A stretch of 64,000 bases of DNA from an uncultured virus (IMG/VR IMGVR_UViG_3300012041_000021) (lineage: Duplodnaviria; Heunggongvirae; Uroviricota; Caudoviricetes). Shown one piece after another: positions 2,307-60,242 of the stretch (positions are counted from its first letter, which is position 1; each line of letters begins with the position of its first letter). A program made the translations under genes and the position numbers. Below the pieces are notes generated by a model that made no database searches, had not been told where the DNA came from, and saw only the letters and a list, made by a program, of their open reading frames with translations. The stretch lies in the IMG/VR virus record IMGVR_UViG_3300012041_000021, one strand, 5' to 3'.

Positions 2307-5099
2307 TTAATTCTTGACATTTTTGTCAATACTGTTTCTAAAGCTATTCTCTTTTGAAGTTTGCATTTGCTCTCTCTTGATTTGAATATCTTCAGCTCTC
2401 ATTCTAAGCTCTTCGTCAATCTTCTTCATTTTAGCTTCTTCTGCTTTTGTCTTTGTCTCTAAAGCATTTTCTTTCATGGAAAGTTCTCTGTCTTTATAAT
2501 CATTGTCAAGAGCTTGTTGAGTAGCCTCATTGATTTGAGCATATCCGCTTTCTGCTGCTTGATTAGCAGTAGCTCTTCCAAGTGCGTTGATTCTTTCTGC
2601 TTCTATTCTAGCCTCTCTGTCTAAAGCTGATTCAGATGCTTTAAAGTCTCTTTCTGCTTGTGTCTCTTGAGCCTTAGCTTGTAATTGTTTGTCTACTAAT
2701 TGTTGTTCGTGGTCTCTTTGAGCTTGAGTTTCTTTCTGTGTATTTTCTCTTGATTGTCTAGCAACTGCAACTAATTCTGTGAACGTGTCTGCGGTATACA
2801 TTTCTGCATATCCTAATACGTCTGCTCCTAAAGTATTTGTTTTTAATAGAGTATCTTTGAAGGTCTCTATCTCTCTACGCTTCTTAGGGTCGTTAACAGG
2901 TGTTAAACTTAATCTTCTTAGAGGGAAATCCGCGTCGGTCAAGTTCATGTAATGTTTATCTCCATCACTTGCTGTGAATACGAAATCAACGTCTATGTAT
3001 TCTTTTTGGCAATATTGAGCTACAGCTAAATGTAATTCCATAGCTTTTGTTCTAGCTATCGACATGTCTGTAAAGATATCTGCTGTTGCATCATATTGTG
3101 CTTCTGCTCCTTGTTGTACTCCGGTTGCTGTTTCATAAGTGGTTGCTTCTCCTAATCTTTGTGGAGTAAAACCTACTTGCTCTAAAGCTTTTTGGAAGTA
3201 GTAGTTTGACAGTTGAATACGACTGTTTATTTGTTTGTCAAAAGATACATCCTGAACCATGAAAGTATTCATGTTCTGCGCTCCTTCTAAATTCTGTTTC
3301 TTAGTATCTAAAGGTACGAAGCCAATGTCTTTAGCTAAAGAGTGTAATTTCTCTAAAGATTCTTCAATCGTTCCGTGGTCTTTGTACTCTGAAGGTAAGA
3401 AGTTAATGTCAAATAAGAAGAACATTCCAATCTCTTTTTCAAGTAAATTGAAAATCTGATTTAAACAGATGTTATAACCAATTTGATATGGTCTTAATCT
3501 CTGCGCCATACCATTAGTTATGATACCTGCTACAGGAAGTTTAACGTCAAATATGTTACTGTCTCCTTTTATTTGGTATGGAAGTGGTTCGATGTCTAAG
3601 TATAAATCTTCTGATAAGAATGAATTACCTGCATTAATTTTAATTCCTTTCCATATTTCCGGCACGTAAAACTCATACATTGTGTTATCCTTTAACTCCT
3701 CTTTTCTTAAATCAGAAAGGGCTTTATTGGATACTTTTTTAATCTCATGAGCTTCTATGAATTCCGGTAACAGTTCATCTGTTACAATCTCTGTAGTTGA
3801 ATAACCTTGTTTAGTGGTGTAATTTAAGAACCACATCTTTTTCCAACTTCTCCAATATGCTTCAGTTACTTGCAATAAGTCCGTTCTTACAGTGATGTCG
3901 TCTCTTCTGTGTTGACTATATCCATAACCTAAGTAGTTATTGTTTTGGAAAGGGTGTAACCATGAAGGTACTCTTTGTTCTCCATCCGGCGTGTCTATAA
4001 CATTTTCCCCCATAGGGATGTCAAGAGCGTCCTGCATTTGAAGTCCTAAATCGTAATCATAGTAGTTGTGGAAAGGTAGTAATTGGTTTTGACCGAAAAA
4101 GTGACTGTTCCAAGAGCTAGGTTTTGCATTATCTCTTGCGTTCCCGGCTGCTTCGTATTTCTTTTGCAGGTCTTTAATTTGAATTGCAGTCATTAAGTGA
4201 CCGTACCTTTTAGTAATGTCTGAAACAGAAATGTAGTGAATCCTTCCTACATACTCCCCGTCTTGTGGGTTTTCTGCGTTTACGTCTTTTGAGAAGAATG
4301 TTTCCAAAGGAGACCATCTTTCCGGTTTGTAATAATCATATCCTACGTAGTAGTGTCTGAAGAATCTCCCGGTAAGTAAATAATCCTCCATTTCAGTTCT
4401 ATCTAGCTTATCTAGTTTGAATCTGTCTTGGTCTTTTTCTAAAGTGTGTTCAGCCCATTCAGCCGCTTTAGTTTTGAAGTTTTTGGACATTTCTTTTTCA
4501 ATGACTTCAGGAGGAAGGATTTTAGCCTTTTCCTGTTCGACCATTTCCATGTACTGTTGCTTCTCTTCTTCGGATTTAAATTCTTGTCCCGTTGGGTTTA
4601 TCCCCATTCTTAAAAGCTCTAGTTCAAGTTCTTTTTTGAATGTCTCTGTGGCGAATTCTTGCGTGCGTCTAGTTCTCTCTCTAAGATAATCATTCTCTGA
4701 AATTTCATCAGTAGTGTCTATCTTAAAGTTGTCCTTTTGTTTAAGCCACTCTCCTACGATTTTTCTAACTAAAATTCCAATGAAATCATAGTGCTTAACG
4801 AAGGTAGGTATCCCAACGCCATCTCCTAATTCTTTAATCCTGCCTAAAATACCGTCGTCTTGAATACCATAATCTGAATATACAAGTCTTCCTTCGACCA
4901 TTTTGTAATAGTCTCTAAAGTGTGAGTTTTCAGCTAATTGTGATATACCTATGGATTCCAAAGCATCCATATTTAGATGCTTAAATGAATCCTTTTTCTT
5001 GGTGTTATCCGATACGGTTTGTGCGGGTAGCGAATTAGTGTGTATATTTGTAGAGCCCAATCCGTCATAAAACGGGTGGTTTTCGATTCCTGTACTCAT
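2307..5099 (-). CDS. Portal protein, crAss-like
   Basis: 930 aa next to terminase; long C-terminal coiled coil; size and synteny typical of crAss-like portals. Confidence 0.8.
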   Translation of the reverse strand: MSTGIENHPFYDGLGSTNIHTNSLPAQTVSDNTKKKDSFKHLNMDALESIGISQLAENSHFRDYYKMVEGRLVYSDYGIQDDGILGRIKELGDGVGIPTFVKHYDFIGILVRKIVGEWLKQKDNFKIDTTDEISENDYLRERTRRTQEFATETFKKELELELLRMGINPTGQEFKSEEEKQQYMEMVEQEKAKILPPEVIEKEMSKNFKTKAAEWAEHTLEKDQDRFKLDKLDRTEMEDYLLTGRFFRHYYVGYDYYKPERWSPLETFFSKDVNAENPQDGEYVGRIHYISVSDITKRYGHLMTAIQIKDLQKKYEAAGNARDNAKPSSWNSHFFGQNQLLPFHNYYDYDLGLQMQDALDIPMGENVIDTPDGEQRVPSWLHPFQNNNYLGYGYSQHRRDDITVRTDLLQVTEAYWRSWKKMWFLNYTTKQGYSTTEIVTDELLPEFIEAHEIKKVSNKALSDLRKEELKDNTMYEFYVPEIWKGIKINAGNSFLSEDLYLDIEPLPYQIKGDSNIFDVKLPVAGIITNGMAQRLRPYQIGYNICLNQIFNLLEKEIGMFFLFDINFLPSEYKDHGTIEESLEKLHSLAKDIGFVPLDTKKQNLEGAQNMNTFMVQDVSFDKQINSRIQLSNYYFQKALEQVGFTPQRLGEATTYETATGVQQGAEAQYDATADIFTDMSIARTKAMELHLAVAQYCQKEYIDVDFVFTASDGDKHYMNLTDADFPLRRLSLTPVNDPKKRREIETFKDTLLKTNTLGADVLGYAEMYTADTFTELVAVARQSRENTQKETQAQRDHEQQLVDKQLQAKAQETQAERDFKASESALDREARIEAERINALGRATANQAAESGYAQINEATQQALDNDYKDRELSMKENALETKTKAEEAKMKKIDEELRMRAEDIQIKREQMQTSKENSFRNSIDKNVKN

Positions 5100-10301: not shown

Positions 10302-10436
10302 ATGAAAACAAAATTATTACAATTAAGAATTGAAGAAGTCCTTTTAAAAGATTTAGAAAAGTTGGCAGAATCAAATGCGTTATCTGTATCTGCTCAGGTT
10401 AGGATGCTAATTAAACATGCACTTAAAAATGGCTAA
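10302..10436 (+). CDS. Ribbon-helix-helix (CopG/Arc-like) repressor, 44 aa
   Basis: Below ORF-track cutoff; MKTKLLQLRIEEVLLKDLEKLAESNALSVSAQVRMLIKHALKNG has the beta-strand/helix/helix RHH pattern. Confidence 0.75.
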   Translation: MKTKLLQLRIEEVLLKDLEKLAESNALSVSAQVRMLIKHALKNG

Positions 10437-11034
10437 GAATACTACACCGTATAGCCCAACTACTCAAGGAGTAGGTTATACAGGAGAGGGTAGACATGTT
10501 TGTTACATTAATGGTAAAGTTACTAAAATGTTTGACGTTTGGTCTAAAATATTTCAAAGAAGTTATAGTAAGCACTACCACAAACGATATCCTACATATG
10601 TTGGCTGCTCTGTAGATGAAAAATGGCACTGTTTTCAAGACTTTGGAGATTGGTTTGAGGAAAATTATAAGCCTGAATATATGCAAAATTGGGAGTTAGA
10701 TAAAGATATTATAGTTAACAGTAATAAAATTTATTCTACCAACACATGTGCCTTTGTTCCAAAAGAGGTCAATTACTTATTTAAAAGTACTAAAAGTTTT
10801 AGGGGTGACTGTCCTATAGGGGTGCGTAAACAAGGTGATAAATTTGTAGCCACTATTAGAATAAATAATAAGCAAACGTATTTAGGTAGTTTTTCTACTA
10901 TGGAAGCGGCATTCCTCTCTTTTAAAACAGCAAAAGAGAAGTATATTAAAGAAGTTGCAGATAAGTATAAAGACACACTAGACCCACAAGTTTACAAGTC
11001 AATGTATAGTTATGAAATTAAAATAACAGATTAA
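10429..11034 (+). CDS. HNH-like homing endonuclease with C-terminal AP2 domain
   Basis: YPTYVGCSV..W..FQDF..W, LDKDII..NKIYS..TCAFVP..VN; AP2-like PIGV...YLGSFST.EAA; start at ATG 10429 overlaps the RHH stop. Confidence 0.75.
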   Translation: MAKNTTPYSPTTQGVGYTGEGRHVCYINGKVTKMFDVWSKIFQRSYSKHYHKRYPTYVGCSVDEKWHCFQDFGDWFEENYKPEYMQNWELDKDIIVNSNKIYSTNTCAFVPKEVNYLFKSTKSFRGDCPIGVRKQGDKFVATIRINNKQTYLGSFSTMEAAFLSFKTAKEKYIKEVADKYKDTLDPQVYKSMYSYEIKITD

Positions 11035-11056
11035 TTTAAAATATTATTTAATTTAG

Positions 11057-11610
11057 TTGCACATGTCAAAACTTATTTGTACTTTTGCACTTTAAATAGA
11101 AACATCAATAGTTTATTAGTTGTGAAGAGCTGAAAACTATTATACAATATTAATACTTACGACACCCACTTTAACATTCAAGCTTAACCCTCTCTTCACT
11201 TAAGGGGTTTTGCCATGAATGTTTTAGTGGGTTTCGACGTTTTATGATGTGGGGCTACGAGGAATCGTTCACATTGCGGGAGTTTAATTACTCCTTAAGC
11301 TAAAAGGAAGCGAGTGCATACTTAGTATGTTGAACTCTCCTGAGAGCTGCGCTATGCAGCAAAATTAAAAATATAAAGTTATCCCAAGGAGCAGGAGCTT
11401 TAGCTCCACTAAAAATAAAATCCTAACTGTGAGGCTGAAAGCCGAAGTCGCGAAGCGGTTACTACTACGAAGCACACTGAAGAAAACAGTTAAAGAATGT
11501 AATTCTAAAACGGACTACGAAGCGAAGCGTAGTAGAACGGTTTAGCTCCGTCCGAGTAGGACATTCTTTGAACACAAAACAGTTGTTCTTTTTTAGCTGT
11601 TTTAAAGTAG
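11057..11610 (+). ncRNA. Structured non-coding locus A (promoter + kissing-loop hairpins + GNA mini-hairpins)
   Basis: No ORF of 60 aa or more; promoter 33/36 identical to that at 46611; many perfect hairpins; see findings. Confidence 0.6.
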
Positions 11611-26382: not shown

Positions 26383-27049
26383 ATTTATACTAAGTCTAAA
26401 TAAACTTAAGTCTTTGTCCGGTCTGTTTATCTTTATTTAGATTAAGTCTATATAGTATAATTAATACCTTTTTTATTTGTTTTTGTCATTTTGTCATTTT
26501 GCGCCTTATTTAGATTCATTATAAATTTCTGTTTTGATTAGGATTATTCATTTTAATTTATTAATATACGCGCCCGCGCCCGCCCGCGCAGGCACACACG
26601 CGAGCCACTATTTAGATTCATTATAAATTAACACTCAATATATTTTTATAACAAAATAATCTGTTTTTGGCTTGGTCATTCAAAATATTGTCCCTGTTCA
26701 ACGTTCTCAAACTTTTAATACTTCCATACATTTGCACCTGTTTACATTACTTAAAACACCTTTAAAATCGTTTTTAAGGCTATTTAATAACCTTTTACCT
26801 TTATAATAAATGAAAAGCGGGCGCGCGTATATTATACGAAATTCTTTTTAAATAAAAAAATTTATTTTCACTTTCTATTAAAAAACTTTTATGCACCTTT
26901 ACACTGTCCAAAAGACATGATAAAAAGGAGTTCTTATTTAGACTGAAAATAAATAACAAAAAAAGTTAGGTTATATCAAATAAATTATTACCTTTGAAAT
27001 GTCCAAAAGACATAAAGAAAAAGAGGTCTTATTTAGAATGAAAATAAAT
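26383..27049. promoter_or_regulatory. Six 19-bp ATTTAGA-N5-T(C/A)TAAAT-type imperfect palindromes (Fur-box-like)
   Basis: Copies at 26383, 26435, 26508, 26610, 26936, 27031; those at 26508 and 26610 are identical (ATTTAGATTCATTATAAAT). Confidence 0.65.
26562..26834. repeat. GC-rich inverted repeat pair
   Basis: TAATATACGCGCCCGC (26562-26577) versus GCGGGCGCGCGTATATTA (26817-26834). Confidence 0.75.
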
Positions 27050-27108
27050 AACGAAAGTTGTTTGGTAGTTTAAAAAAAGTTTCTATCTTTGTAGTGTCCA
27101 AAGGGACA
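26894..27108 (+). promoter_or_regulatory. Three tandem early promoter units, 95-bp period
   Basis: -7 boxes CACCTTTA (26894, degenerate), TACCTTTG (26989), TATCTTTG (27084), each followed by TGTCCAAA(A/GG)GACA at 26905, 27000, 27095. Confidence 0.8.
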
Positions 27109-28314
27109 AAAGTTCTTTAAGTATTGGGTTATTAGGTCGTTAGGGGTTCATTAATCCTGTCGTAACGCAACAAAACAAGTTTTTTAACTGTTGAGATGTC
27201 AACATTAATCAAGGCGTTTTACGCAAAATCAAGAGCGTGCCTATATTCCTTTAAATCGGTTCATTGACATTATGATAGTATATAAAAATTCGGTTTTGCT
27301 AGTCGTATTGATTATTTTTATTAATCTTTCCATTAGTAGAGGCTATATTTTACCTTAAGTCTATTTTATAACAGTTTAACACGTTATAAAGTCCTGACAG
27401 AATAAGCGAAAAACGAAAGTACTTTTTTTAAGAGTATTGCTAAATTGATATATATTATTTGTTGGGCGGGATATAAAAACACGTAGTTCACCGCTAACTA
27501 GATGATGATTGTAAAATAGTTGGGATAACTGTATAATTTCGTCAAGGGTGCAAAATAGGTCTGCGGGTCTCGAAAAATTGCACAGTGTTACACTTCACTA
27601 AACCCAAAATAAGGGCAAAAAGTAAATATTACAGAATCGTATGGGGTTATTAATATACCTTACTTGCAAAGCGACAAAAGTAAAAAATTAAATACTCCCC
27701 TTAAAAGATTAGTCTTTGTTAAGTTCATTACTTATAAGGGGAACGAGTAGCCAATAACGGCGCAAAATAAAAACAGTAAAATTATGAAAAAGTTTAAAGT
27801 TACTTATAATCACGACGTATATAAACCGTCTAATTATGAAATGTTTAAAGCACAGCAAGCTTGGTCAATAACTATTGAAGCAGAGGACTTAAACACAGCC
27901 AAAGGTAAATTAAAGTTAATGTATATCATTAACCCTGCTTACTTTAATATAGTAGAGGTAAACTAAAAACAGTAAAATTATGGCAAAGTTAGTTAAATTA
28001 ACAGACAATCAGAGAAACAAACTAGTAGTAGCAATAGTTAAAAACTCCGTATCTTATCAATGTAAGCATATCGACTATAAAATCGTTGGGAGTAGTGTGC
28101 ATATTTTTGACGCTAGAGACAACGAAACGTTTTCAGCCACAGAGTTATGTAGTCAATTAAGCGGGTTTAACCAATACTTTACTATTGATGAAGGTAAAAT
28201 AGTACTTAGAATCTTTTAATATGCTAGTAATCAGTCTTTTAGCAGTTACCATTATCGTTTTAATGGTAGCTGTTTTCTGTTTAGCTTATAAGATAGCAGG
28301 AAAGTTTTTATAAT

Positions 28315-39811: not shown

Positions 39812-42800
39812 GATTATGGAAGAGACAAATAGATTAATAGATACCTTCATGGGAAGTGATGGTAAGTATATTTCTCACAAAGACCAATGGGGCGGAGAAG
39901 TTTGGGGAAGTCATGAGCCTAATCCTTATCATTGGGATTGGAATTTGTTGATGGAAGTAGTTGATTATGTTGATTCTATGCTTACAGATGATACATTTGT
40001 CGTTATAGAATACAATAGATGTTGGATTAACGTATTAGAAGGAGGCTTTGACATTGACGTAATAAATAACAGTAGAAAGCAAGCGGTTTATCTAGCAGTA
40101 GTACAGTATATAGAGTGGTACAACACTAAAAATTAAATTTAAAACGGAGCGCATGAAAGATTATAATATACCAATCATTTATCAGTCTTGTAAAAACTTC
40201 CACGTAGAAGCAGAGAACTTACAAGAAGCGGTTGAAAAAGCATTAAAACAGTTCTTCTCCGAACCGGACGAAATGTACATCGAAGACAGTTTTGAAATAG
40301 ACGGGATTGTTTTAGAAGATGGGGAAGATTTTGATATGGATAAATTGTTAAAAAACTAAGATTATGAAAACTATTAAAACATACCTTCCGGTCTTCTCCG
40401 GTTTTTACGGGACATTATTTGAAGAGGTTATCGACAGTGAAATTGATTATATCTTAGAAGGAGACGAAAGTTTCACTATGGACAACATTGAGTTTGACTT
40501 TAAACAGTTCAGAGAAGACATTGCTCAAAGATGTGTGGATATATTTGAAGATGCTCTCAACAGAGAGTTAGGTACAAAGGTTGCCGTTATCTTTGAATCA
40601 ATTTGCTCTCCTAGACAATACAACTTTGGAAATGATAGTATAGACGTAGCTATGATTATAAGTGAAGAAGATTTTAATTGGATTTTAAACGTTATTAAAA
40701 CAAACGCAGAAGAAATACAAGAAGAACTAGTAGAAAGATATTCAAGTAGAGACGGTTTTTATTCTCATCACTCAACAGACTTAAATGATTGGTTAGTGGA
40801 TTTAGAAAATGCTCATAAATTCGGAGCAATGCTAGACATTCTTTGCAATGTTTTAGATATTGTAGACGAAGAAGAAATGGTTGACCGAGTTCGCGGAAAT
40901 GTAAGTTTAGATTACGAAATCTTATAATATGTTGTATCACAGAGATTTAGGCTTTCCCTCTACCCTAGTGGTGGAGGAAGCTTATACCTTCTACCCTAGA
41001 TATTCAGCTCATGCGGAGAAGGAATCTAAGAGCGATAGGTACGGAGAAATTAAACTACCTAAAAGAATTGACTTCTTAAGTAGTGATATTGTAGAGATTG
41101 AGACTTCTGACGATAAGACTATTGATAAGATGGTTGTCAGACTGTCTTACAACGGAACTTTAGACTTGTGTTCAGTGATTATACCGGAAACAAGTGTAGT
41201 GAAGACCGTATGGATTAATGCTAAAAAAGATAAACATCCAACTTTGGATAAAAGTAAATACTCAAATTAAAGATTATGGAATTAGTAGAAAAATATAGAT
41301 TAGCTTTATTACAGCTACAACAGTACAGTGATAACGAATTGATTATTCAAGAAGGGAAAAAATTAAATGTTCAGGACGAGTTGGATATTATTAACCCCCC
41401 TAAAGAGAAATTCGTTTGGAGTTATTCAGTAAGTTCTAACTCTATTTGGGCTTCGTTTGATTGCGGAGAAGTAGAAGCAGAAACTTATGAAGAGGCTTTG
41501 GAATTAGCTAACTTAAAACTAAGTAAGGAATTTGAAAACGCTAACATGATATTAGGCTCTTCATTCTTAACTGACCACATGACTTTAGACTACTGTAAAG
41601 ACTCGATAGAAATATCTATAAACAAGTAACATGAAAGAAGAACTTGAAGAAAACTTAAGAGACTGCTACGTCTTAATAGATGATTGGGAGTTACTTAAAG
41701 ACCTTTCACACATGGAAAGGCAACGATTAGATGTAGAGTTAAAACTATTACAAATGAGAGCTATACAGGCTTACAAAAAAGAGGTAGATAAAATCAAAAT
41801 TTAAAAGATATGGCAAGAACAGTTGAAGAATGTGAGGAAATTATAGATTTTCTTTATAAGAAAATCGGAATACTAGAACAAATAGACGAAGTTAAAGATG
41901 AAACTATAGCAATACTTAAAAAGATTGTCGAAGTAAACGAGGAACTTTTAAGAATAAATAGAATAATAAACGCAAAAGAAAACGGAGAATATGAAAAATA
42001 GATTAAACAACCACACAAACAATGTTTTCACTCTGTTCGACGCTTGGGGAATGTTGGAAGGATTGACTCAATATGAAAGAGAAAGAGTCTTATATGAACT
42101 GAAAAGTTTACAGACAGAAGCAATAGACATCTTCAAAGAAGAAATATGGAAGCTCTAGTAATCATTACGTTCATATTGATTGTAGCAGTAATACCTGCAT
42201 ACATCACATACAGATTAGTTAAACAGTCAATTAATAATTGGCATAAATAAAGTAAACTATGAAAAAATATCCATTCATTATCACAGTAAGAGAAGGTTAT
42301 GAAGTCGAAGTAGTAGCCTTTGAAGAAGAGATAAATGCTCATTTAGCATTTGAAGAATTTAAGAAGACCGGACAGTTCGACCTTTGCCTAATGAAACGAC
42401 AAATGGATGGAGATTATGAAGCATTGGAGACTTATATCAGTAAAAAACAACACGACAATTAGTACTATGATTATATATTTAGGAATAGCAGTTTTTTCAA
42501 TTTACATTATTTGCAACGATAAGAGATAACAATATGAAACATCCAATGGGAACAGTGGCTCACGTAAGTCATGGTAGTACAATAATGACAGAAGCGGAAA
42601 GAAGTGTACTGTCTAGTAATGAAGAAATGCCTATCGTACCATACGAACCGGAAGAAGAAAGAGCTTACACTATACACGATTTAGTCGGAGATGATAATGC
42701 TTTATTGTTTGAAGCCTTGTCTAAACGGTTCACTCCTCGCGGGAAAAGAGTACCAACAGAAGAAGAATACTTAGAATACGAATTAATCCTACAAAAGAAG

Positions 42801-43815
42801 TCTAAACTTTCAGCTAAAGAAAGAAAAAAACTTACAAATTTAATTGAAGAAGCACAATACGATGGAAAATAATCATTTTAATACCGGAGAACACATAGTT
42901 GCTCTTCAAACTTATGAAGAGCTAGTCAAAGGTGCAACATATACGGTTGCAGGTATAAGTTATTGCTCTCATTGTGGCTGTCAAAACGTAATCCTTGAAT
43001 TAATAGATAAAGGTTTTAACGCTATGGGTTGCACAGAGTGTGGTAAAACTTCGATGCATACAGTTAATGTTGGAGCGAGAAGATACAAATCTTCCCGATT
43101 TACTAGACTGACAGATGCGAAACAGTTGGAAGCTATATCAGTAGCTCTTGAAAATTATGAAGAAGCTGCTTATTACAGAGATTTACAAAACAAAGCGCAT
43201 GGTTAAGTTAAACAACGGAGTCTTCTCCTTCTTAAATAAACAAGGATTGACAATTCACGACATGAGGAGGATTATAGCGTTATACGCTTTGTCCATTGAT
43301 ATTAAAAGACCGAAGAAAGCCCGCTTAGAATGGTACGCTAAAATAACTGAACTAGCTCAAAATGATTTTACTAACTTCAAGAAAGTTTACAACAAAAATA
43401 AAGAGTTAAAGAAACAAGTCAGAACTTACGATGATTGGTATCAAGAGTGTTCTTTCGATGGTTCATTTGCTTACAACGGAGTAGCTGACGATTTTTGAAA
43501 AAATATTTGCGATATTGAAAATTAATTAGTACATTTACAAAAAAATAAAACACATGGGAGTAGAAAATTTTTACGAATTAGGTAAAGGAATAGGAGCTAT
43601 AGGAGTTTCTACAGTGAAGGGCACAGATGTAGTTCTTATTACCCTCTCAGACTTATTAGAGAAAACAGAAGTTGGAGTGGATTTACTAGGTAAAGACGTG
43701 GAAGAAGAGAATATAACAATTCTCTTCATACATAATCTTGAAGGATTAGCAGTATTAGAGGATGCGTGTAAAAACGCAAGAACAATTTTAGAAAGTAAAA
43801 AATAAAGAGAAGCGC

Positions 43816-44322
43816 ATGAAAAAATTATTAGTTTTAGTGTTGCTAATTACCGGAACGGTAGCGGTAGCACAACCCCACTTTGGGACTAAAGAATACTTCA
43901 CAGGTTCAGTATATGTTGACCCCGGAGGAAGTATTAAAGAGAAAGGTTTAGACTTTGGAGCAGACATTGGATTGGTCAGCTACGGAGGTTATGTAAAGGC
44001 GGGGTTTCAATCGTTTGACGCTCTTGAAGGAGGTTATTATGACATTGCCGGAGCAGGAGGATTGAACCTGACTTGGGGAACATTTGAAGAGTTCAGGACG
44101 TATGCAGGAATTAGATTAGGACTAATTAACAGAGGTTACAAAGATGGGGACTCTCACGTATATCCCCTCTTTGGAACTGAAGCCGGAGTAGATTACTTCC
44201 TCAACGAGAAGTTGTTTGTAGGCGCAGGATTGTCTTATGATTGGAGAGAAGATTTCTTATATTCAGGCGCAGAGCCGGAGTATCAGGGTAGTGGAAAAGT
44301 AAAAATTGGTATAACTTGGTAA
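43816..44322 (+). CDS. Small outer-membrane beta-barrel protein
   Basis: Sec signal peptide, alternating Gly/aromatic beta strands, C-terminal beta signal KVKIGITW. Confidence 0.75.
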   Translation: MKKLLVLVLLITGTVAVAQPHFGTKEYFTGSVYVDPGGSIKEKGLDFGADIGLVSYGGYVKAGFQSFDALEGGYYDIAGAGGLNLTWGTFEEFRTYAGIRLGLINRGYKDGDSHVYPLFGTEAGVDYFLNEKLFVGAGLSYDWREDFLYSGAEPEYQGSGKVKIGITW

Positions 44323-45637: not shown

Positions 45638-46600
45638 ATGAGCATAAGCGCAGTAATAAAATATGAAGACAATAGAGTATCAATACATACTTCAAAAGCG
45701 AAGAGTGTAAGCACTACTTTAGAAAAAGGTTTTTATACATCTTTACCCGACGGTAAAGGCGGTTTAACTATTAAAGAAGAGTTTCTTCCTGAACTACACA
45801 CACCTTATAATACAGAAGAAAATGAAACCGTTATTGAAACAGTTAAAAGCTTTTTCAAGAAAGGGATTAAAGAACGAGTAAACGCTCTAGGAGTTATTCA
45901 TAAATTAGGAATACTTTCTTTTGGTAAACAAGGTACAGGGAAGACAGCTAGAATGAATTATATAGCTTCAAAAATGATTGACGAGTGTGGAGCAATTGCT
46001 TTTTTATGTGGTACAGGAGAAGCTTTGCAAGGTGCTATCTCTTTAGCTAAAGCTATTAGAGAGATTCAAGATACTCCTATCATTTTTATAGCTGACGAGT
46101 TTGAAAAGTTTGCCGGAGATTATGAATCTGCAATGAAAAGTCTTTTAGATGGTGTAGATTCAATTGAAAATACACTGTTTTTAGGGGCTACCAATTACAT
46201 TGATTTAATTCCCGATTCATTGAAAGACCGTCCTTCTCGTTTTAAAATTGTGCAAGAGTTGAAAGGGATGGAAGATAAAAAACAAATTGAAGGTATTCTT
46301 TTGGACTTGTGTTCTAAAGTTACACCTCCTCTAATGACTTTGGAAGAGATTCAAGAAGAGATTAAAGGTCAGGATAACTATACTTTAGACGAGCTTAAAC
46401 ACATCGTACTTAGCAGAGTTACAGACAGTTACGTCAAAGTTAAAAAAACTACAACTACTCCTATAGGTTTTGGAGCGAAGAAAGAGATTTCAGAAGAAGA
46501 AGATAAAAAACTTATGAACAGAGCTATTCAGAAAATACATAATGATTGGTGGGCGGATGCACCTTCACCTCAACTGTTAGACATTAATTCTAACATTTAA
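45638..46600 (+). CDS. AAA+ ATPase
   Basis: GKQGTGKT, FIADEFE, LLDG, ATNY, DRPSRF. Confidence 0.9.
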   Translation: MSISAVIKYEDNRVSIHTSKAKSVSTTLEKGFYTSLPDGKGGLTIKEEFLPELHTPYNTEENETVIETVKSFFKKGIKERVNALGVIHKLGILSFGKQGTGKTARMNYIASKMIDECGAIAFLCGTGEALQGAISLAKAIREIQDTPIIFIADEFEKFAGDYESAMKSLLDGVDSIENTLFLGATNYIDLIPDSLKDRPSRFKIVQELKGMEDKKQIEGILLDLCSKVTPPLMTLEEIQEEIKGQDNYTLDELKHIVLSRVTDSYVKVKKTTTTPIGFGAKKEISEEEDKKLMNRAIQKIHNDWWADAPSPQLLDINSNI

Positions 46601-46610
46601 TTTAATTAGT

Positions 46611-47160
46611 TTGCACATGTCAAAACTTAATTGTATCTTTGCACTTATAAAATGGAGAAATTCTGTTTTACAACATAGATATAACGTTTAGCCTGAGAAA
46701 CTAATCATATAAAAATACTTAAGGTATCCCCTTTTAGATTTTTGGACAAATTCTCAGGCTGTCCGATTTTCTATTAGGGGTTTTTTATTTTCAGTCCATT
46801 CCACTATAGGTTTTCAACCGCGTACCTATTTAAAACTAAAAGGCGGATTAACAAGGAATGTTGAAAAATAAAAAGATAAACTAATTAAACACGTTTGATT
46901 CACACTAATCTCGCAATGTCTTAACGCTTGACAACGAGTAACTGCATTCCCTAGAGGGTAATCGAATTAAAATGACTGAAAACGAAGCTCTGTTAAGAAA
47001 TTAATAACTTCACCTACTAAGATTAGGCGCAGGAGCAGAAATGGTTTAATGGTTAAGTAAGTTTCCACTCTTACTACAAACTCCGGTTTTATTCTTTTGA
47101 GAGGATAATGCAGGAGTAATAGCGAAGCTATGTCCGGTAGCGAGAAAAAAAACAAAAATA
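46611..47160 (+). ncRNA. Structured non-coding locus B (homologue of locus A)
   Basis: Same promoter, kissing-loop architecture and GCGAAGC hairpin; no plus-strand ORF of 60 aa or more. Confidence 0.6.
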
Positions 47161-47248
47161 AATTATGAAATAATAAAGAAAATTGAAATTTTCCTTGCAC
47201 AATCCAATTATTATAATTACATTTGCCAAAGAAAAATAAAACAAGAAC

Positions 47249-47785
47249 ATGACAGAAGAACAAAAAGAATTATTTAAGAAAGACCCGCTAATCAAATTAA
47301 TCTTAGAACAAAAAGAACCTTTGGGGCACATTACTCTAGTGGGCGGAGCTGTAATTGATATCTTGGAAGGACGTATTCCAAAGGATTATGATTTAACTAA
47401 CATCGACGGTAGAGCTAAAAAGTATTTAAATTTAGAATACTCTCACGATACAAAGACAGCTACTACTTATAAGACATATATCTTTGATAAAAGAGTACAG
47501 TTAAATATTCAAGTTTTGAAAACAAGTATAGACAATTTTGACTTTTCTATTTCTGCGGCAATTTTAACTATCAATCATAATAAGGAAATGTCCCTAGCAA
47601 TAGATGAGAACGCTTTTAAGCTAAAAACTCTGATTCCTCAGAGTGCGAGTTGGGAAGATAGAAACTACGCTTTAAACTCCTTAAAAAGGATTCCACATTG
47701 GAAGAAGAAGGGGTATACTATAAAAGATGAAACTTATTTAAGTTTGTTGAATGTAATTGGAAAAAAAGATTCTAAACACAGTTAA
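47249..47785 (+). CDS. Minimal tRNA nucleotidyltransferase / poly(A) polymerase-like head domain
   Basis: LVGGAVIDILEGRIPKDYD (GG..RD/KD.D-like signature), FDFSI. Confidence 0.7.
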   Translation: MTEEQKELFKKDPLIKLILEQKEPLGHITLVGGAVIDILEGRIPKDYDLTNIDGRAKKYLNLEYSHDTKTATTYKTYIFDKRVQLNIQVLKTSIDNFDFSISAAILTINHNKEMSLAIDENAFKLKTLIPQSASWEDRNYALNSLKRIPHWKKKGYTIKDETYLSLLNVIGKKDSKHS

Positions 47786-47787
47786 AA

Positions 47788-48547
47788 ATGAGAGTACTGA
47801 TAGAAACATACAGACAGTGGGAGATATACTTCGACACTTACAAAGAAGATTTTTACACTGTATCAAATGAATGCGATAGAGACCAAACTAAACGTTCTTA
47901 CGCTTCAACAAAGAAGTTCATTGACGATTATATAAAGGAGAACGATACTTTTAGACCTTTTTATGTTCAAAGAATGTACACCGATATACTTAAGGTAATA
48001 GGAGTTAGAAAAGACGGAGCTTTTATGTATGAGGATAAGGATGGTAAGAAGAAACAATTCTCTAAATATGACGAAAGAAATTACTTCTTAGTTGATGAAG
48101 CAAACGACCATATCTTTGAAAAACTAGCCTTTTTAAACAAAAAAGCAGAGAATCTTAAAAAAGAGATTATAGAAACAGAAGACAAAGTTATTAAGGTAAC
48201 AGTAGAAGACTACCGTAAAACATTATAAGATGGCAAGAAGAGGAACAGGCGATGATTGGGGAACGAGGTTTAGTATTGTACTTATATCCCTAATATTTAT
48301 AGTAGTAGTATTAGCTTTCACAAGTTGCGAGGCTGTAATACCTGATACAAAGAAATATGAAATAGTTTTGGAGGTGCATTATCCAACTAGAATAGACACT
48401 GTTAAGATTGTAAACGAAATGAGTTACTATCCTTATTTATTCTCTAATAGAGGGAGTAACGATATAGCGGGATTCACAACAACAGCACCAATTAAAGTAA
48501 TATCAATAAAAGAAATTAAAAGCGTAGCGCATGAATCAAAAGATTAG
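47788..48547 (+). other. Hypothetical CDS and a lipoprotein (48230-48547, FTSC lipobox)
   Basis: ORF track. Confidence 0.6.
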
Positions 48548-50241: not shown

Positions 50242-50928
50242 GTGGAAAAAGAAGATAGAAGGTGTTTTGTATACAGGCATAGAAGATTAGACACCAATGA
50301 AATTTTCTATATAGGAAAAGGCACAACAAGTAAAAAATTTTTAAATTCTGAATCCGATAAGAAAAAATTCGTAAGAGCGTTTTCTAAAAGAAATAGAAAT
50401 CAATGGTGGGTTAATATAAGTAAATTAGGTTATGAAATAGAGATATTAAAGACTAATCTTACTGAAGACGAATCTAATGATTTAGAAGAGTTGTTAATAA
50501 CTACTTATGGTAGAAAAGATTGTTGTGGAGGCACTTTAGTTAACTTAACTGATGGAGGGGAAGGAGCTATTGGTCGTATTATGAGTGAAGAGCAAAAACA
50601 AGAAATAGGTAAGCGCAACTCAGGGGTGAATAATAAGTGGTTTAAAATAGCCTCTGAATTACATCCTATGTACGGAAGGATAGGAGAATTAAATCCTTAT
50701 TTTGGCAAAACTCACTCGGAAGAAGTAAGAGAAAGTATGAAGAAACCTCATCTAAGTGCTAGAGGTAAAGGTCATTTTAGGTCTAAAGTGGTTTTACATT
50801 TATTAACAGGGATTTTTTACGATTGTGTAAGAGATGCAGCAGAAGCATTTGGCTTAAATTATAGCACGTTAAAGAATAATTTAAACGGAACAAATAGAGT
50901 TAATAAAACAGATTTTATAATTATTTAA
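50242..50928 (+). CDS. GIY-YIG homing endonuclease with NUMOD3-like repeats
   Basis: FVYRH...FYIGKG, LVNLTDGGEG, HPMYGR / NPYFGKTHSEE. Confidence 0.85.
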   Translation: MEKEDRRCFVYRHRRLDTNEIFYIGKGTTSKKFLNSESDKKKFVRAFSKRNRNQWWVNISKLGYEIEILKTNLTEDESNDLEELLITTYGRKDCCGGTLVNLTDGGEGAIGRIMSEEQKQEIGKRNSGVNNKWFKIASELHPMYGRIGELNPYFGKTHSEEVRESMKKPHLSARGKGHFRSKVVLHLLTGIFYDCVRDAAEAFGLNYSTLKNNLNGTNRVNKTDFIII

Positions 50929-50996: not shown

Positions 50997-51854
50997 ATGG
51001 AAAAAGAATATCAAGTTACATTTAAAGGTTTTAAAACATCAAAGCAAGCTGAAGAGTTTGCAATGTGGTACGCAGGAAGTGGAGAACAAGATGTCTGTTT
51101 ATGGTTAGAGGAACATACAGACATTACTTCTGCAAATACTAAGAGTGTTAAAATTAAAGAAAATGGAAATATTATTGTAGAAATAAATCCTTTATAAAAG
51201 AGATATGAAAAAAGTAATTTTAGGTTTATTAGTATGTTTGAGTTTAGGCTCATGTGCTAGATGGTCAAACAGAGTTGACGCAAACGGAGGAGTATTTGGG
51301 TCTTACACCGGAAATTGGATTGTCATTACTTATTCCGGCAATCACATTACAGATGTTTATAAAATGCAAGATGTGATGGTTCAATCAGAAGAGGGTAGTG
51401 ACGGTTGGTTATTTGTAACAGAAGGTAATGCGGTTCATGTAGGAGGTAATACAAAAGCTATTCGAGTTGATAATGAGGATGCTGCTAAATGGAATGAATA
51501 TGTAGAATATCATTCAGAGTTTACAGATTTAGATTACCACGCTTATAGGAAAGAGTTAGAACAGCCTGACTACGAACTTAAAAAAATTAAAAGATAAATT
51601 AAAAAGCGGAGCGCATGAAAAAATTTGTAGTAGGTTATCTAAACTTTTATGATAACGAGATTCTTCTTCTTAAAGTAGAAGCAGAGTCAAGTTATGAAGC
51701 TGTTAAGAAAGCAATGGTCGAGTTCTGTACCACAGAAGAAGGTAGGTTAGAAGAGTTAGAGTGGCAAGCTAATGAAGAGTATCCTGATAATTTTAATGAT
51801 TTGTCTGACATGCTTTATAATTCTGATACAGCGATAAATGTAATTGAGATTTAA
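50997..51854 (+). other. Three small CDSs including a lipoprotein (51205-51597, LGSC)
   Basis: Promoter TATATTTG at 50970 suggests the first ORF starts at ATG 50997. Confidence 0.6.
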
Positions 51855-51859
51855 AGCTT

Positions 51860-52425
51860 AAACTACTTACTGAAGATAAATAGTCATTTATAAACTAAAT
51901 ATGGGACAGCAGAATCCAACTGCTATTAAATGATAGTCATGCTAAGATGGTGTTATTTATTGTAAGATACTTAATTATACTCTAAAGGAATTGTAAGCTC
52001 CGAGATTGTTAAAAGCTTAGATATAATAAAAGTATTCCACTTAGAAATGGATAAGTAGTTTTTAAAAAGTAGAGCCGCCTTTCTTTAAATAGAAATAACT
52101 TCGTTAAGGCACGAGTGGGGTGCGGCTCTTTAAAATATAGGCTAAACAGCGAATCTTTGTAAAGCGAATGTGATAAGGTGGTAAGATTCAACTAGAAAGC
52201 CATTTTTGAAATTTACATAAAGATACGCCCTAAACCCTGATAGAAACTTTACAGTAATGTAAAGGATGGTACGACATGTATGAGATAAGGTTGTCTTCGC
52301 TATTGAGAAATAGCACCATCGGGAGTTCTCAGCAAGTAGAAGTAAACCTGAAAGAAATGGAAGGAGCTTAACTACGTGACCCTAATCATAGAAACTTGCT
52401 TCGGCATTCGTAATGATGGGTGCTA
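51860..52425 (+). ncRNA. Large multi-domain structured ncRNA candidate (~570 nt)
   Basis: Long-range stems plus GNRA (GTAA, GAGA) and C(UUCG)G tetraloops on the plus strand; no plus-strand ORF. Confidence 0.65.
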
Positions 52426-52453
52426 ATAGAATAATTAACCAATTTAAATTAGA

Positions 52454-53479: not shown

Positions 53480-53569
53480 GAAGAGGAAGTTCAATTGGAG
53501 AAACAGTAGCGTTCCGAAAGAGGTCAGCTCTTGCGCTAAAGGTTGGGGGTTCGAGTCCCCCTCTCTTCG
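53480..53569 (+). tRNA. tRNA-like RNA with 17-nt hairpin insertion in the anticodon loop (identity unassignable)
   Basis: Acceptor GAAGAGG/TCTCTTC, D-arm GTTCAATTGGAGAAAC, T-arm GGGGG-TTCGAGT-CCCCC, discriminator G, no encoded CCA. Confidence 0.75.
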
Positions 53570-55215: not shown

Positions 55216-55388
55216 TACATTTGCATCACAATAACAGAAGTCCTGTAGACTAGCAGGAGACAAGAGAATAGCCTTTACTAAGGGTTCGACTTGGTAAACA
55301 AACACAGGCAGAATGCCTACTCTCTCGCAATTTAAATTAGAGAGAATCAAATTATTAGCCCTTAGCCGAAACGTTAGGGGCTTTTTTT
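55216..55388 (+). promoter_or_regulatory. Promoter and structured leader with terminator/antiterminator upstream of nrdJ
   Basis: TACATTTG 55216; several hairpins; terminator AGCCCTTAGC-CGAAAC-GTTAGGGGCT plus T-run at 55357-55388; CTAAGGGTT (55278) complementary to its 5' arm. Confidence 0.6.
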
Positions 55389-55419
55389 GCCCCGTAAATT
55401 AAAAATCAATTATAAATAA

Positions 55420-58395: not shown

Positions 58396-59533
58396 ATGAA
58401 ACTAATACCAATGACCGATTTTGTTTTTCATAAAAGAAGAACAATGGTTGACGAAGGCTTGCCTGTAGATGATTGCCTACAACAAATATTCAATTACGCC
58501 AACTTTTTAAAACAACTCTTAACACTTGGAATGTTTGTTCCTTGCAGTGCTAGTGGAGAGATTTTAAAGCTTCCTATTTTTGAAGATTACACCGACTGTA
58601 CTATAGAACAAAACATGGAAGATTTTCTGTATAATTTAGGACTCTATAATGACGCAAAAGACCGCGTTTTATTTGAGGGAGAACATGGATTATATGATGA
58701 TTGGTGTTTACAACTAGAAGATGGGACTCTTATAGAAAATGTAAAAAAGTTACATAAAATGACCATTGAAGATTTAACCTTCCATGAGTTAACATTAACT
58801 GAATCAGCAATTAAACAATTAGGAATTTAAAGATGAAAAAGACAGAAGTAAAAACAAATTTCCTTCACAGGTACATATTACCGAGAAGAGAATATACTGT
58901 TAGAGCATTGACGGACAATAGAGACGAGTTTGCAATAGAGGAAGTTTATTATATTTTAAGTATGGCTATTTGGCACACGTTCCACATAGAGGATGAGAAG
59001 TTGGGAAAACCTTTCAATACTTTTTTTCAGGCGTTAAGAGAGAGTGAGGAATTGGAAGCTGTGGAAAAAGCAAAAGTACTTGATAGAGAAATCAAATTCA
59101 TTTGGGTTTGTGTGGGGTTTTTAATGACAATTGCCGGATGGAGTTTAATTGAATATGTTTTATAAGTATGGAAGAAAGATTAGTAGGTTATGATGTAGCT
59201 AAAGCAGCTAAATGGAAATTTATTGAATTTAACACACGACACGGATTTAATGAACCAACTAAAGAAGCGTTTGATGGGGGTAACGTATCAAATTGGAGTT
59301 TACTTAGGAAGTTTATTTCAAGACCAACACAATCTGTTGTTCAGGCGTACTTAAGAGATAACCATAATCTAAAAGTTTATGTTGTCCCTCACTACGATAA
59401 TGAGCACTACAACAGTTACATATTAAACAAAGAGGTAAGCTACAATAAAGAGCATTACGACCTATCATTTAAAACCTATGAAGACGCATTAGAAGCAGGA
59501 TTAGAAGAAGCATTAAATTTAATAGAAAATTAA
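58396..59533 (+). other. Three hypothetical CDSs
   Basis: ORF track; promoter TATATTTG near 58369. Confidence 0.65.
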
Positions 59534-59543
59534 AGCGGAGAGC

Positions 59544-60242
59544 ATGAAAGTAGAGTTAGTAGCAAAAACAGTAGGAGTAGGTAAATATGAAAACCTATCT
59601 TCAGAAGAAATTGTGTCGGCAATTGCACGACATGGAGTTGTAAAAGAAGACAACGGTAAATTAGTTAAATACTTAATGTCTAACGCTCATTGGAGTCCTT
59701 TAGACATGATTAACTTCGTAGTTGAAGTAGAAACAAGTAGAGCAATTGGGAGACAGATTTTGCGCCACGCAAGTATTAAATTTCAAGAGCATAGTCAAAG
59801 ATATTCTGATAGAGTTCAGTTTGAACCAATTGAGTTTAGGATGGAACACCCGACAAACAGACAGAGTAGTACAGACATCATCGGTACTTTAGAAATCAAA
59901 GAGAAGTCTTTCAGTACAGATGTTTTAGATGGATTTGAAGAACATCAAGATTTTTTAGAAGAAATTGGTTACTATTTAAAAAATGTTCAAAAACTTTACA
60001 AAGAAGGTTTAGAAAAAGGGATTGCAAAAGAGTGTATGAGAAGCATACTTCCTGAATGTACTACATCAACGTTATCAGCTAATGGTACATTACGTTCTTG
60101 GTTAAGTTTCTTAAATGTTCGTTGTGACCATCATGCTCAAAAAGAGTGTCAAGACCTTGCTACTCTAATCGGAGAAGCTTTAGAAAAAGAAATGCCTAAT
60201 GTGTTTTCTACTATTGAATGGAGAACCGGAATGTTCATGTAA
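59544..60242 (+). CDS. thyX: FAD-dependent thymidylate synthase
   Basis: HWSPL, RQILRH, FQEHSQRY, AKECMR.ILP, HAQKE. Confidence 0.93.
   Translation: MKVELVAKTVGVGKYENLSSEEIVSAIARHGVVKEDNGKLVKYLMSNAHWSPLDMINFVVEVETSRAIGRQILRHASIKFQEHSQRYSDRVQFEPIEFRMEHPTNRQSSTDIIGTLEIKEKSFSTDVLDGFEEHQDFLEEIGYYLKNVQKLYKEGLEKGIAKECMRSILPECTTSTLSANGTLRSWLSFLNVRCDHHAQKECQDLATLIGEALEKEMPNVFSTIEWRTGMFM

Follow-up and report, generated by a model that had tools for sequence, protein, structure and literature searches.

Among the closest described counterparts of the leader RNAs considered here are RNAs of temperate elements of enterobacteria. The CI RNA of P4 and the c4 RNA of P1 and P7 are short RNAs derived from the leader region of an early transcript; they are processed and, by means of complementary boxes, act in trans on sites located up- and downstream, the reported outcome being premature termination or a block of downstream genes. 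Outside this group, the loops of pRNA pair over ca. 4 nt, and terminator loops are usually regarded as inert. To our knowledge, almost nothing is known about early gene control in large uncultured Bacteroidota phages.

Locus B is located in a 64,000-nt stretch of DNA of such a phage, analyzed in full and referred to below as the window; a second locus of the window, A, and two related leaders from two other phages, L003 and G3, are compared with it. They resemble the P4 CI and P1/P7 c4 RNAs in being leader RNAs with both boxes within one transcript, where compensatory changes in both partners result in private specificities. They differ from them in that the boxes occupy the loops of neighboring hairpins, the second of these being itself the putative terminator, in lacking a third site (64-kb window), and in showing no sequence or Rfam relationship to them. 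Locus B was also considered as an immunity RNA of the P4 CI/P1 c4 type, and this candidate was rejected: perfect sites of its box and the complement occur only twice in the 64-kb window, both times within the leader, and no further perfect copies were found there. Terminator/antiterminator attenuators, riboswitch platforms, and antisense attenuation of the pT181/pIP501 type share with these loci a promoter-proximal leader, a terminator preceding the cargo, and an alternative pairing with an upstream segment. In contrast to the classical attenuators, however, the upstream segment pairs here with the loop of the terminator and not with its arm, extended complementarity to the arm being significant only in L003, and unlike riboswitches the leaders contain no conserved sequence resembling a ligand pocket, while the letters that pair are variable. 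The pairing is also longer than that of pRNA, 8–10 nt in the phage leaders versus ca. 4 nt.

Two further comparisons come from the literature. As described in PMC11979758, exposed nucleotides in the loop of the Rho-independent terminator of OxyS kiss a loop of another RNA, fhlA; there an sRNA contacts an mRNA in trans and it is translation that is affected, whereas the partner of the H2 loop in the phage leaders lies upstream in the same transcript. The phi29 prohead RNA and the ROOL, GOLLD, and OLE RNAs, as presented in PMC12286853, are also phage-borne non-coding RNAs in which covarying kissing pairs are conserved while their letters drift. Their pairs, however, join several molecules and have no terminator role, and these RNAs have Rfam models of their own, none of which matched here. 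Searches of open-access papers and bioRxiv preprints gave no description of a leader that pairs one of its hairpin loops with that of its own terminator. As a kind, regulatory leaders that lie close to a promoter and contain a terminator are known; the loop-to-terminator-loop arrangement is not known from these sources.

The window is a part of a large phage with promoters of the Bacteroidota type. Its minus strand carries, up to ca. 10.2 kb, the genes of the portal, the large terminase, and further structural proteins; a long plus-strand block beginning at ca. 10.2 kb encodes, among others, a UvsX-like recombinase, PhoH, GroEL, exonucleases, a ribonucleotide reductase, and a thymidylate synthase. 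The motif TAnnTTTG, which we take from the consensus in the literature to be the -7 element of Bacteroidota promoters, precedes many genes by 25–35 nt from the start codon and occurs in the window 64 times on the plus strand and 32 times on the minus strand. The sequencing runs listed as containing this stretch include no RNA run; the DNA runs are freshwater sediment and groundwater metagenomes, and contigs from the four DNA runs are identical to the window wherever they overlap with it and thus provide no natural variation.

All the features of locus B are encoded on the plus strand. Its promoter (46610–46641) comprises a TTG-type -33 element (46610–46616) and a -7 box matching TAnnTTTG (46634–46641), and transcription probably starts near 46648, where, according to the folds and the alignment, the 5'-terminal hairpin H0 of 9 bp with a 5-nt loop begins (46648–46670). 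It is followed by the weak hairpin H1 (46688–46704), which with its 4 bp (46688–46691/46701–46704) presents box 1, a 10-nt sequence (46690–46699) whose perfect reverse complement is box 2 (46751–46760). H1 of locus B is absent from the MFE folds; A, L003, and G3 each have a good hairpin in its place. Beyond an A/U-rich 8-nt linker motif (46714–46721), an identical copy of which is present in locus A (11152–11159), lies the hairpin H2 (46728–46780; -21.4 kcal/mol). Its 16 bp are arranged in three segments, the outer (46728–46732/46776–46780), the middle (46735–46738/46770–46773), and the top one (46742–46748/46760–46766), with symmetric U/U internal loops between them, and its 11-nt apical loop (46749–46759) is filled by box 2. 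The T6-A-T4 tract located directly downstream (46781–46791, with T6 at 46781–46786) forms together with H2 an intrinsic-terminator-like site. A stable G+C-containing stem-loop followed by a U run, i.e., the sequence form of an intrinsic terminator, is present in locus B, L003, and G3; the terminator scan, with its loop limit of 8 nt, missed H2 of locus B, at which termination would occur. The fold of the whole 5' element of locus B is only modestly better than those of shuffled sequences (z -2.3).

Downstream of the T tract there is a poorly conserved spacer with no recognizable promoter (46792–46885), followed by a conserved non-coding core described below. No plus-strand ORF of at least 20 aa is present between 46692 and 47248. 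The next promoter (47191–47225, -7 box 47218–47225) serves the gene of a small nucleotidyltransferase (47249–47785), weakly matching the head domain of poly(A) polymerases and CCA-adding enzymes. This gene is a neighbor of the locus B RNA; the idea of a linkage was dropped, since in only one (L003) of the eight IMG/VR relatives examined (L001–L008) is the RNA found nearby.

Locus A, also on the plus strand, begins with a promoter at 11057–11087 (-7 box 11080–11087), which is 84% identical to that of locus B over 56 nt. Its H1 (11107–11141) has an 8-bp outer stem and carries the 8-nt box 1 at 11122–11129, and its H2 (11160–11236), of ca. 29 bp with symmetric U/U internal loops, has a 12-nt loop (11192–11203) that starts with the complement of box 1, i.e., box 2 (11192–11199). 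The 5' element of locus A folds better than its shuffles (z -7.1). No T-run adjoins H2, only T4 is found 3 nt past its stem, and the terminator scan detected no sites, so that locus A does not have the form of an intrinsic terminator. The homology of A and B comprises 11037–11178 and 46591–46740 (69% over 153 nt, E 2e-14) and runs through to the 5' arm of H2; sequence comparison detected no similarity 3' of H2. Judged by this alignment, A and B are paralogues. The ORF-free tail of locus A (11240–11600, plus strand) is richer in G+C (0.41) and moderately structured (z -2.6), while the fold of the tail of locus B is no better than those of shuffles (z -0.5). Two candidate features of the tails were rejected. 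A 6-nt motif common to both occurs 20 times on the plus strand of the window, with four copies in A and two in B, the enrichment in B being too weak; the idea of a pseudogene or hidden ORF was dropped, as neither tail contains a plus-strand ORF of at least 20 aa. It is also worth mentioning that free-standing genes of HNH or homing-endonuclease-like proteins are located at 10417–11034 and 50242–50928, the HNH gene lying directly 5' of locus A.

A preliminary description of the window had presented locus B as having the same architecture as locus A with different, compensatory loop sequences. A re-reading of the sequence showed all of its coordinates to be correct, and the view of A and B as copies of one 5' element, in which the loop letters differ while complementarity and spacing are kept, holds. 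The architecture is indeed the same for the first ca. 190 nt; it is not so further downstream, where the ORF-free parts are unrelated and H2 of locus A lacks a T-run.

Yet another leader of this kind is present on L003, a 17-kb IMG/VR contig that was retrieved owing to its nucleotidyltransferase gene and carries an orthologue of locus B. Its promoter is of the same kind, and the stems of H0 are kept while the H0 loop is different. H1 consists of a 7-bp stem and a 12-nt loop containing an 8-nt box, exactly complementary to the entire 8-nt apical loop of H2, and a T-run follows H2. In the alignment, the outer stem of its H2 corresponds to the C-rich/G-rich one of locus B and is maintained by C-to-U changes giving G-U pairs; since these would be A-C mismatches on the other strand, the loop element appears to function as plus-strand RNA rather than as DNA. 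Box and loop are made up of letters unrelated to either A or B.

The fourth leader comes from G3, a syntenic relative of 146 kb with terminal repeats, whose proteins are 25–80% identical to those of the window. It is located just past the switch to the plus strand and consists of a promoter, H1 with a 9-nt box in a 12-nt loop, and a 17-bp H2 with the complement of the box in a 13-nt loop and with T5 behind it. The T-run and the start codon of a primase-like gene are 12 nt apart, which leaves no room for another promoter, and a helicase gene is next. G3 was found by scanning ca. 423 kb for exactly this pattern, so that its P value is inflated by selection; its position and form nevertheless fit the leader family. 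A promoter, an H1 loop exactly complementary over at least 8 nt to the apical loop of H2, and pairing restricted to cognate partners were thus found in A, B, L003, and G3. Another relative, L046 (also L044), with a UvsX-like protein 72% identical to that of the window, has at 3040–3610 a promoter followed by ca. 520 nt of ORF-free, G+C-richer sequence preceding a helicase gene; this region resembles neither locus A nor locus B in sequence and contains no loop-loop pair.

The length of the complementary stretch is 8 nt in A, 10 nt in B, 8 nt in L003, and 9 nt in G3, with different letters in each. Among the simple hairpins of the window (both strands), 24 of 1256 (1.9%) have a loop complement of at least 8 nt within 130 nt upstream, and a complement of 10 nt was found for a single one, locus B itself. 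When the leader was dinucleotide-shuffled and the hairpin left unchanged, the observed complement was reached in 87 (A), 2 (B), 2 (L003), and 16 (G3) of 5000 sequences. By this measure locus A alone is unremarkable; it counts because its pair occupies the homologous place in a paralogue, and A and L003 are independent tests since both were found by homology and not by complementarity. A loose scan for loop-loop pairs between double hairpins revealed no enrichment (4237 runs versus 5324 control runs) and is uninformative. As MAFFT gave no in-register alignment of the four leaders, the statements on their pairs are based on direct reading, folding, and duplex energies.

The cognate duplexes are predicted to be stable, at -11.8 (A), -16.7 (B), -14.7 (L003), and -15.9 kcal/mol (G3), versus +1.4 to -8.5 kcal/mol for all 12 non-cognate combinations. 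The orthogonality of A and B, proposed earlier, is borne out by these values, the cross pairs of the two having only -3.7 and -4.3 kcal/mol, and the argument from covariation has become stronger with L003 and G3, which keep the loop-loop complementarity with entirely different letters. It is therefore well supported by the sequences compared that the pairing of the loops is selected, and not its letters. When the transcript is ended just past the H2 loop, the MFE fold contains the box-to-loop helix with 10 of 10 pairs in B, 8 of 8 in L003, 8 of 9 in G3, and none in A; in B, L003, and G3 this helix could thus form before the 3' arm of H2 exists. With the complete H2, only in B and L003 does a nested alternative containing the helix come within ca. 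3 kcal/mol of the terminator fold, and in B it is the MFE fold; in nested folding, forcing the helix costs ca. 30 kcal/mol in A and ca. 10 kcal/mol in G3. Complementarity of the leader to the H2 loop, the 3' arm, and the U-tract beyond the box was equaled by 5 of 1000 shuffles of the remaining leader in L003, 92 in B, 522 in A, and 983 in G3.

The part of locus B located behind the terminator-like site had been described as about 380 nt of ORF-free sequence. It indeed contains no plus-strand ORF of at least 20 aa, but it is not filler, as it holds a conserved core of ca. 250 nt (46886–47136, plus strand; 1430–1672 in L003). Apart from this core (77% over 266 nt, counting gaps), blastn matches nothing of the 17-kb L003 contig to the 64-kb window, and the core is far better conserved than the neighboring proteins, those common to both sequences being 25–51% identical. 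In its small hairpin at 47119–47131 L003 keeps the stem while the letters of the triloop change. For the core of the window and that of L003, RNAalifold predicts 53 pairs, five of them compensatory; the plus strand scores better (-39.25 kcal/mol with five compensatory pairs versus -35.95 kcal/mol with two for the minus strand), a difference that is not decisive. The covariance model of the core, R1, scores 326.9 bits with the window (46880–47150) and 314.3 bits with L003, both being training sequences that match by construction. It gave no further matches at E < 0.2 in 417,604 bases of related phage DNA, locus A not being a member, and none in five further records and two GTDB loci. The core of L003 additionally contains two hairpin loops complementary over 10 nt (1529–1538 and 1599–1608), a pair with no counterpart in the core of the window. 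A motif scan detected no -7 element between the terminator-like site and the core in locus B; therefore, the core would be reached by read-through. The comparison of the two sequences makes it a candidate for a new family of phage non-coding RNAs, with two members so far.

The interpretation of the loop pairing that we prefer, at slightly less than an even chance, is that A, B, L003, and G3 belong to a family of promoter-proximal leaders in large phages with Bacteroidota-type promoters, in which contact between the loops modulates an intrinsic terminator. Transcription from a host-type promoter would yield a leader folding into H1 and the long bulged H2, with apical loops complementary over 8–10 nt. 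In B, L003, and G3 H2 would be an intrinsic terminator, and the cargo behind it, with no promoter of its own, would in B and L003 be the conserved core RNA of 250 nt and in G3 an operon of the primase-like gene and the helicase. Immediately after the H2 loop has left the polymerase, with the 3' arm of H2 still to be synthesized, the H1 loop would capture it, and the paired loop helix would alter the speed and completeness of the formation of the terminator hairpin. The outcome would be expressed as the ratio of a short terminated RNA of ca. 140 nt to read-through into the cargo, and H1, or a factor masking H1, would decide it. The contact would in this way switch the terminator, gating transcription into the downstream part; as to the direction of the effect, we lean towards anti-termination. 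This interpretation is favored because the helix could form ahead of the 3' arm and because of geometry: a helix of 8–10 bp cannot be accommodated in a loop of 8–13 nt with the top of H2 closed, so the contact must disturb or reshape the terminator hairpin. Against it speak the lack of a T-run after H2 in locus A, indicating that the contact between the loops can occur where there is no terminator, the absence of the box-to-loop helix from the MFE fold of the truncated transcript of A, the cost of forcing the helix in A and G3, the lack of generality of the extended complementarity to the 3' half of H2 that a classical antiterminator would need, the mere 4 bp of H1 in B, and the number of instances, which is four.

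The pair might instead be a static tertiary contact, in which the leader or the ca. 140-nt terminated RNA serves as a small RNA or a protective 5' domain, compacted or stabilized by the H1–H2 contact, e.g., against ribonucleases, while termination is unaffected. The conservation of the pairing in locus A, whose H2 is no terminator, the free variation of the loop letters, as expected for a purely structural pair, and the stable 5'-terminal H0 of B and L003, resembling a stabilizer, are all in line with it. We nevertheless regard it as unlikely, since the promoterless cargo of G3, B, and L003 requires read-through of H2, and contacts of the H2 loop are placed so as to affect this read-through; the length of the helix relative to that of the loop is, moreover, hard to reconcile with an undisturbed H2.

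Pairing between molecules is judged to have a somewhat smaller probability still. The short RNA could act in trans on transcripts still being made from the promoter that gave rise to it, as a private autoregulator in the manner of the P4 CI and P1/P7 c4 RNAs, or H1 and H2 of several molecules could join hand in hand into dimers or rings, as in phi29 prohead RNA and the ROOL, GOLLD, and OLE assemblies. The mutual orthogonality of A and B would matter only if the molecules met in trans, but compensated neutral drift also yields orthogonality. The loop helix is sterically awkward inside one molecule, and, according to PMC12286853, a covarying loop-loop pair of ROOL that had first been read as tertiary proved to be quaternary. 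The second, 10-nt loop-loop pair of the L003 core points in the same direction, while its absence from the core of the window points in the opposite one. A search for trans targets of the loops within the window gave none: no copy of the box exists elsewhere in the 64 kb, and its three one-mismatch sites are at chance level (five matches versus 3.6 expected, 64-kb window). Finally, a DNA-level feature (a protein-binding inverted repeat, a recombination site, or an origin element) or mere chance is very improbable, for although an inverted repeat is inherently present in the DNA too and both loci are ORF-free behind near-identical promoters, reminiscent of the origin promoters of large phages, the letters differ in each instance, yet their position in two hairpin loops is conserved, G-U pairs preserve the outer stem of H2 on the plus strand only, and the controls with shuffles and with the hairpin population argue against chance.

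Returning to the preferred reading, capture of the terminator loop on the nascent transcript, its extension to a modular, previously undescribed RNA device is put forward as less likely than not. The loop of the leader would serve as a toehold capturing the emerging loop of the terminator, with private, evolvable addresses, and would gate both protein operons, such as the replication genes of G3, and the core RNA; alternatively, the loops would link molecules into defined oligomers. If true, a family of leaders regulated through the loop would represent a new design in transcription attenuation, with several copies working in parallel within one genome, each with its private address. The compensated drift of the addresses and the two orthogonal copies in one genome could provide a ready set of programmable RNA parts free of cross-talk. 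It would also offer a first handle on early gene control in such phages, the leader of G3 fronting a replication operon.

Searches for homologues beyond these four leaders were mostly negative. Rfam 15 recognized in the whole window a single tRNA at the gathering score and nothing else, including no prohead RNA, ROOL, GOLLD, 6S, or riboswitch; a permissive search with both loci and L046 gave best E-values of 0.11–3.4, all with scores far below the gathering ones. Among the INPHARED phages blastn found no match to the 46000–48500 segment of the window, and of locus A only the second promoter was matched, in records of Riemerella phages; a comparison of both loci with 10 related virus records detected nothing significant. 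Exact or degenerate patterns of the promoter and leader had no matches in IMG/VR, nor had a 24-mer of the promoter in the JGI metagenomes, and the five matches of a two-block pattern of the core in the latter were rejected as unrelated G+C-rich DNA. Patterns of the core retrieved from IMG/VR only the L003 contig and one chance match (L048), while the GTDB genome contigs yielded no matches and then two, both rejected as due to chance. For the ATPase encoded upstream and for the primase-like gene of G3, IMG/VR contained no close relatives beyond the sequences themselves.

Several other regions of the window deserve mention. The 26404–27783 segment is a 1.4-kb ORF-free region with a short, very G+C-rich block at ca. 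26570–26610, a 95-nt tandem duplication (26895–27084) containing promoter-like motifs, and a locally flat GC skew; possible interpretations are an origin, an end of the genome, and a regulatory hub. Another ORF-free segment, of 599 nt (51855–52453), is located 3' of the homing-endonuclease-like gene at 50242–50928; it has no match in Rfam and its fold is no better than those of shuffles (z -0.5). The tRNA called by Rfam at 53480–53569 (37.5 bits, 90 nt) was not detected by ARAGORN and overlaps an ORF at its start (53543). The ribonucleotide reductase gene has a leader (55237–55400) with no match in Rfam: a promoter (-7 box at 55216) is followed by ca. 170 untranslated nt and, just 5' of the start codon at 55420, by a terminator-like hairpin and its T-run; a 7-nt upstream segment at 55278–55284 is complementary to the 5' arm of this hairpin (55359–55365), as in a classical antiterminator. 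A family of ca. 31-nt A-rich repeats, D3, is represented by five copies (40128–40158, 43791–43821, 48506–48536, 51590–51620, and 59519–59549), each with a conserved G+C-rich hexamer at its end, directly preceding an ATG; the copy at 48506–48536 ends in the ATG of the ORF starting at 48531. The D3 repeat may be a phage-specific promoter or a signal for the start of translation.
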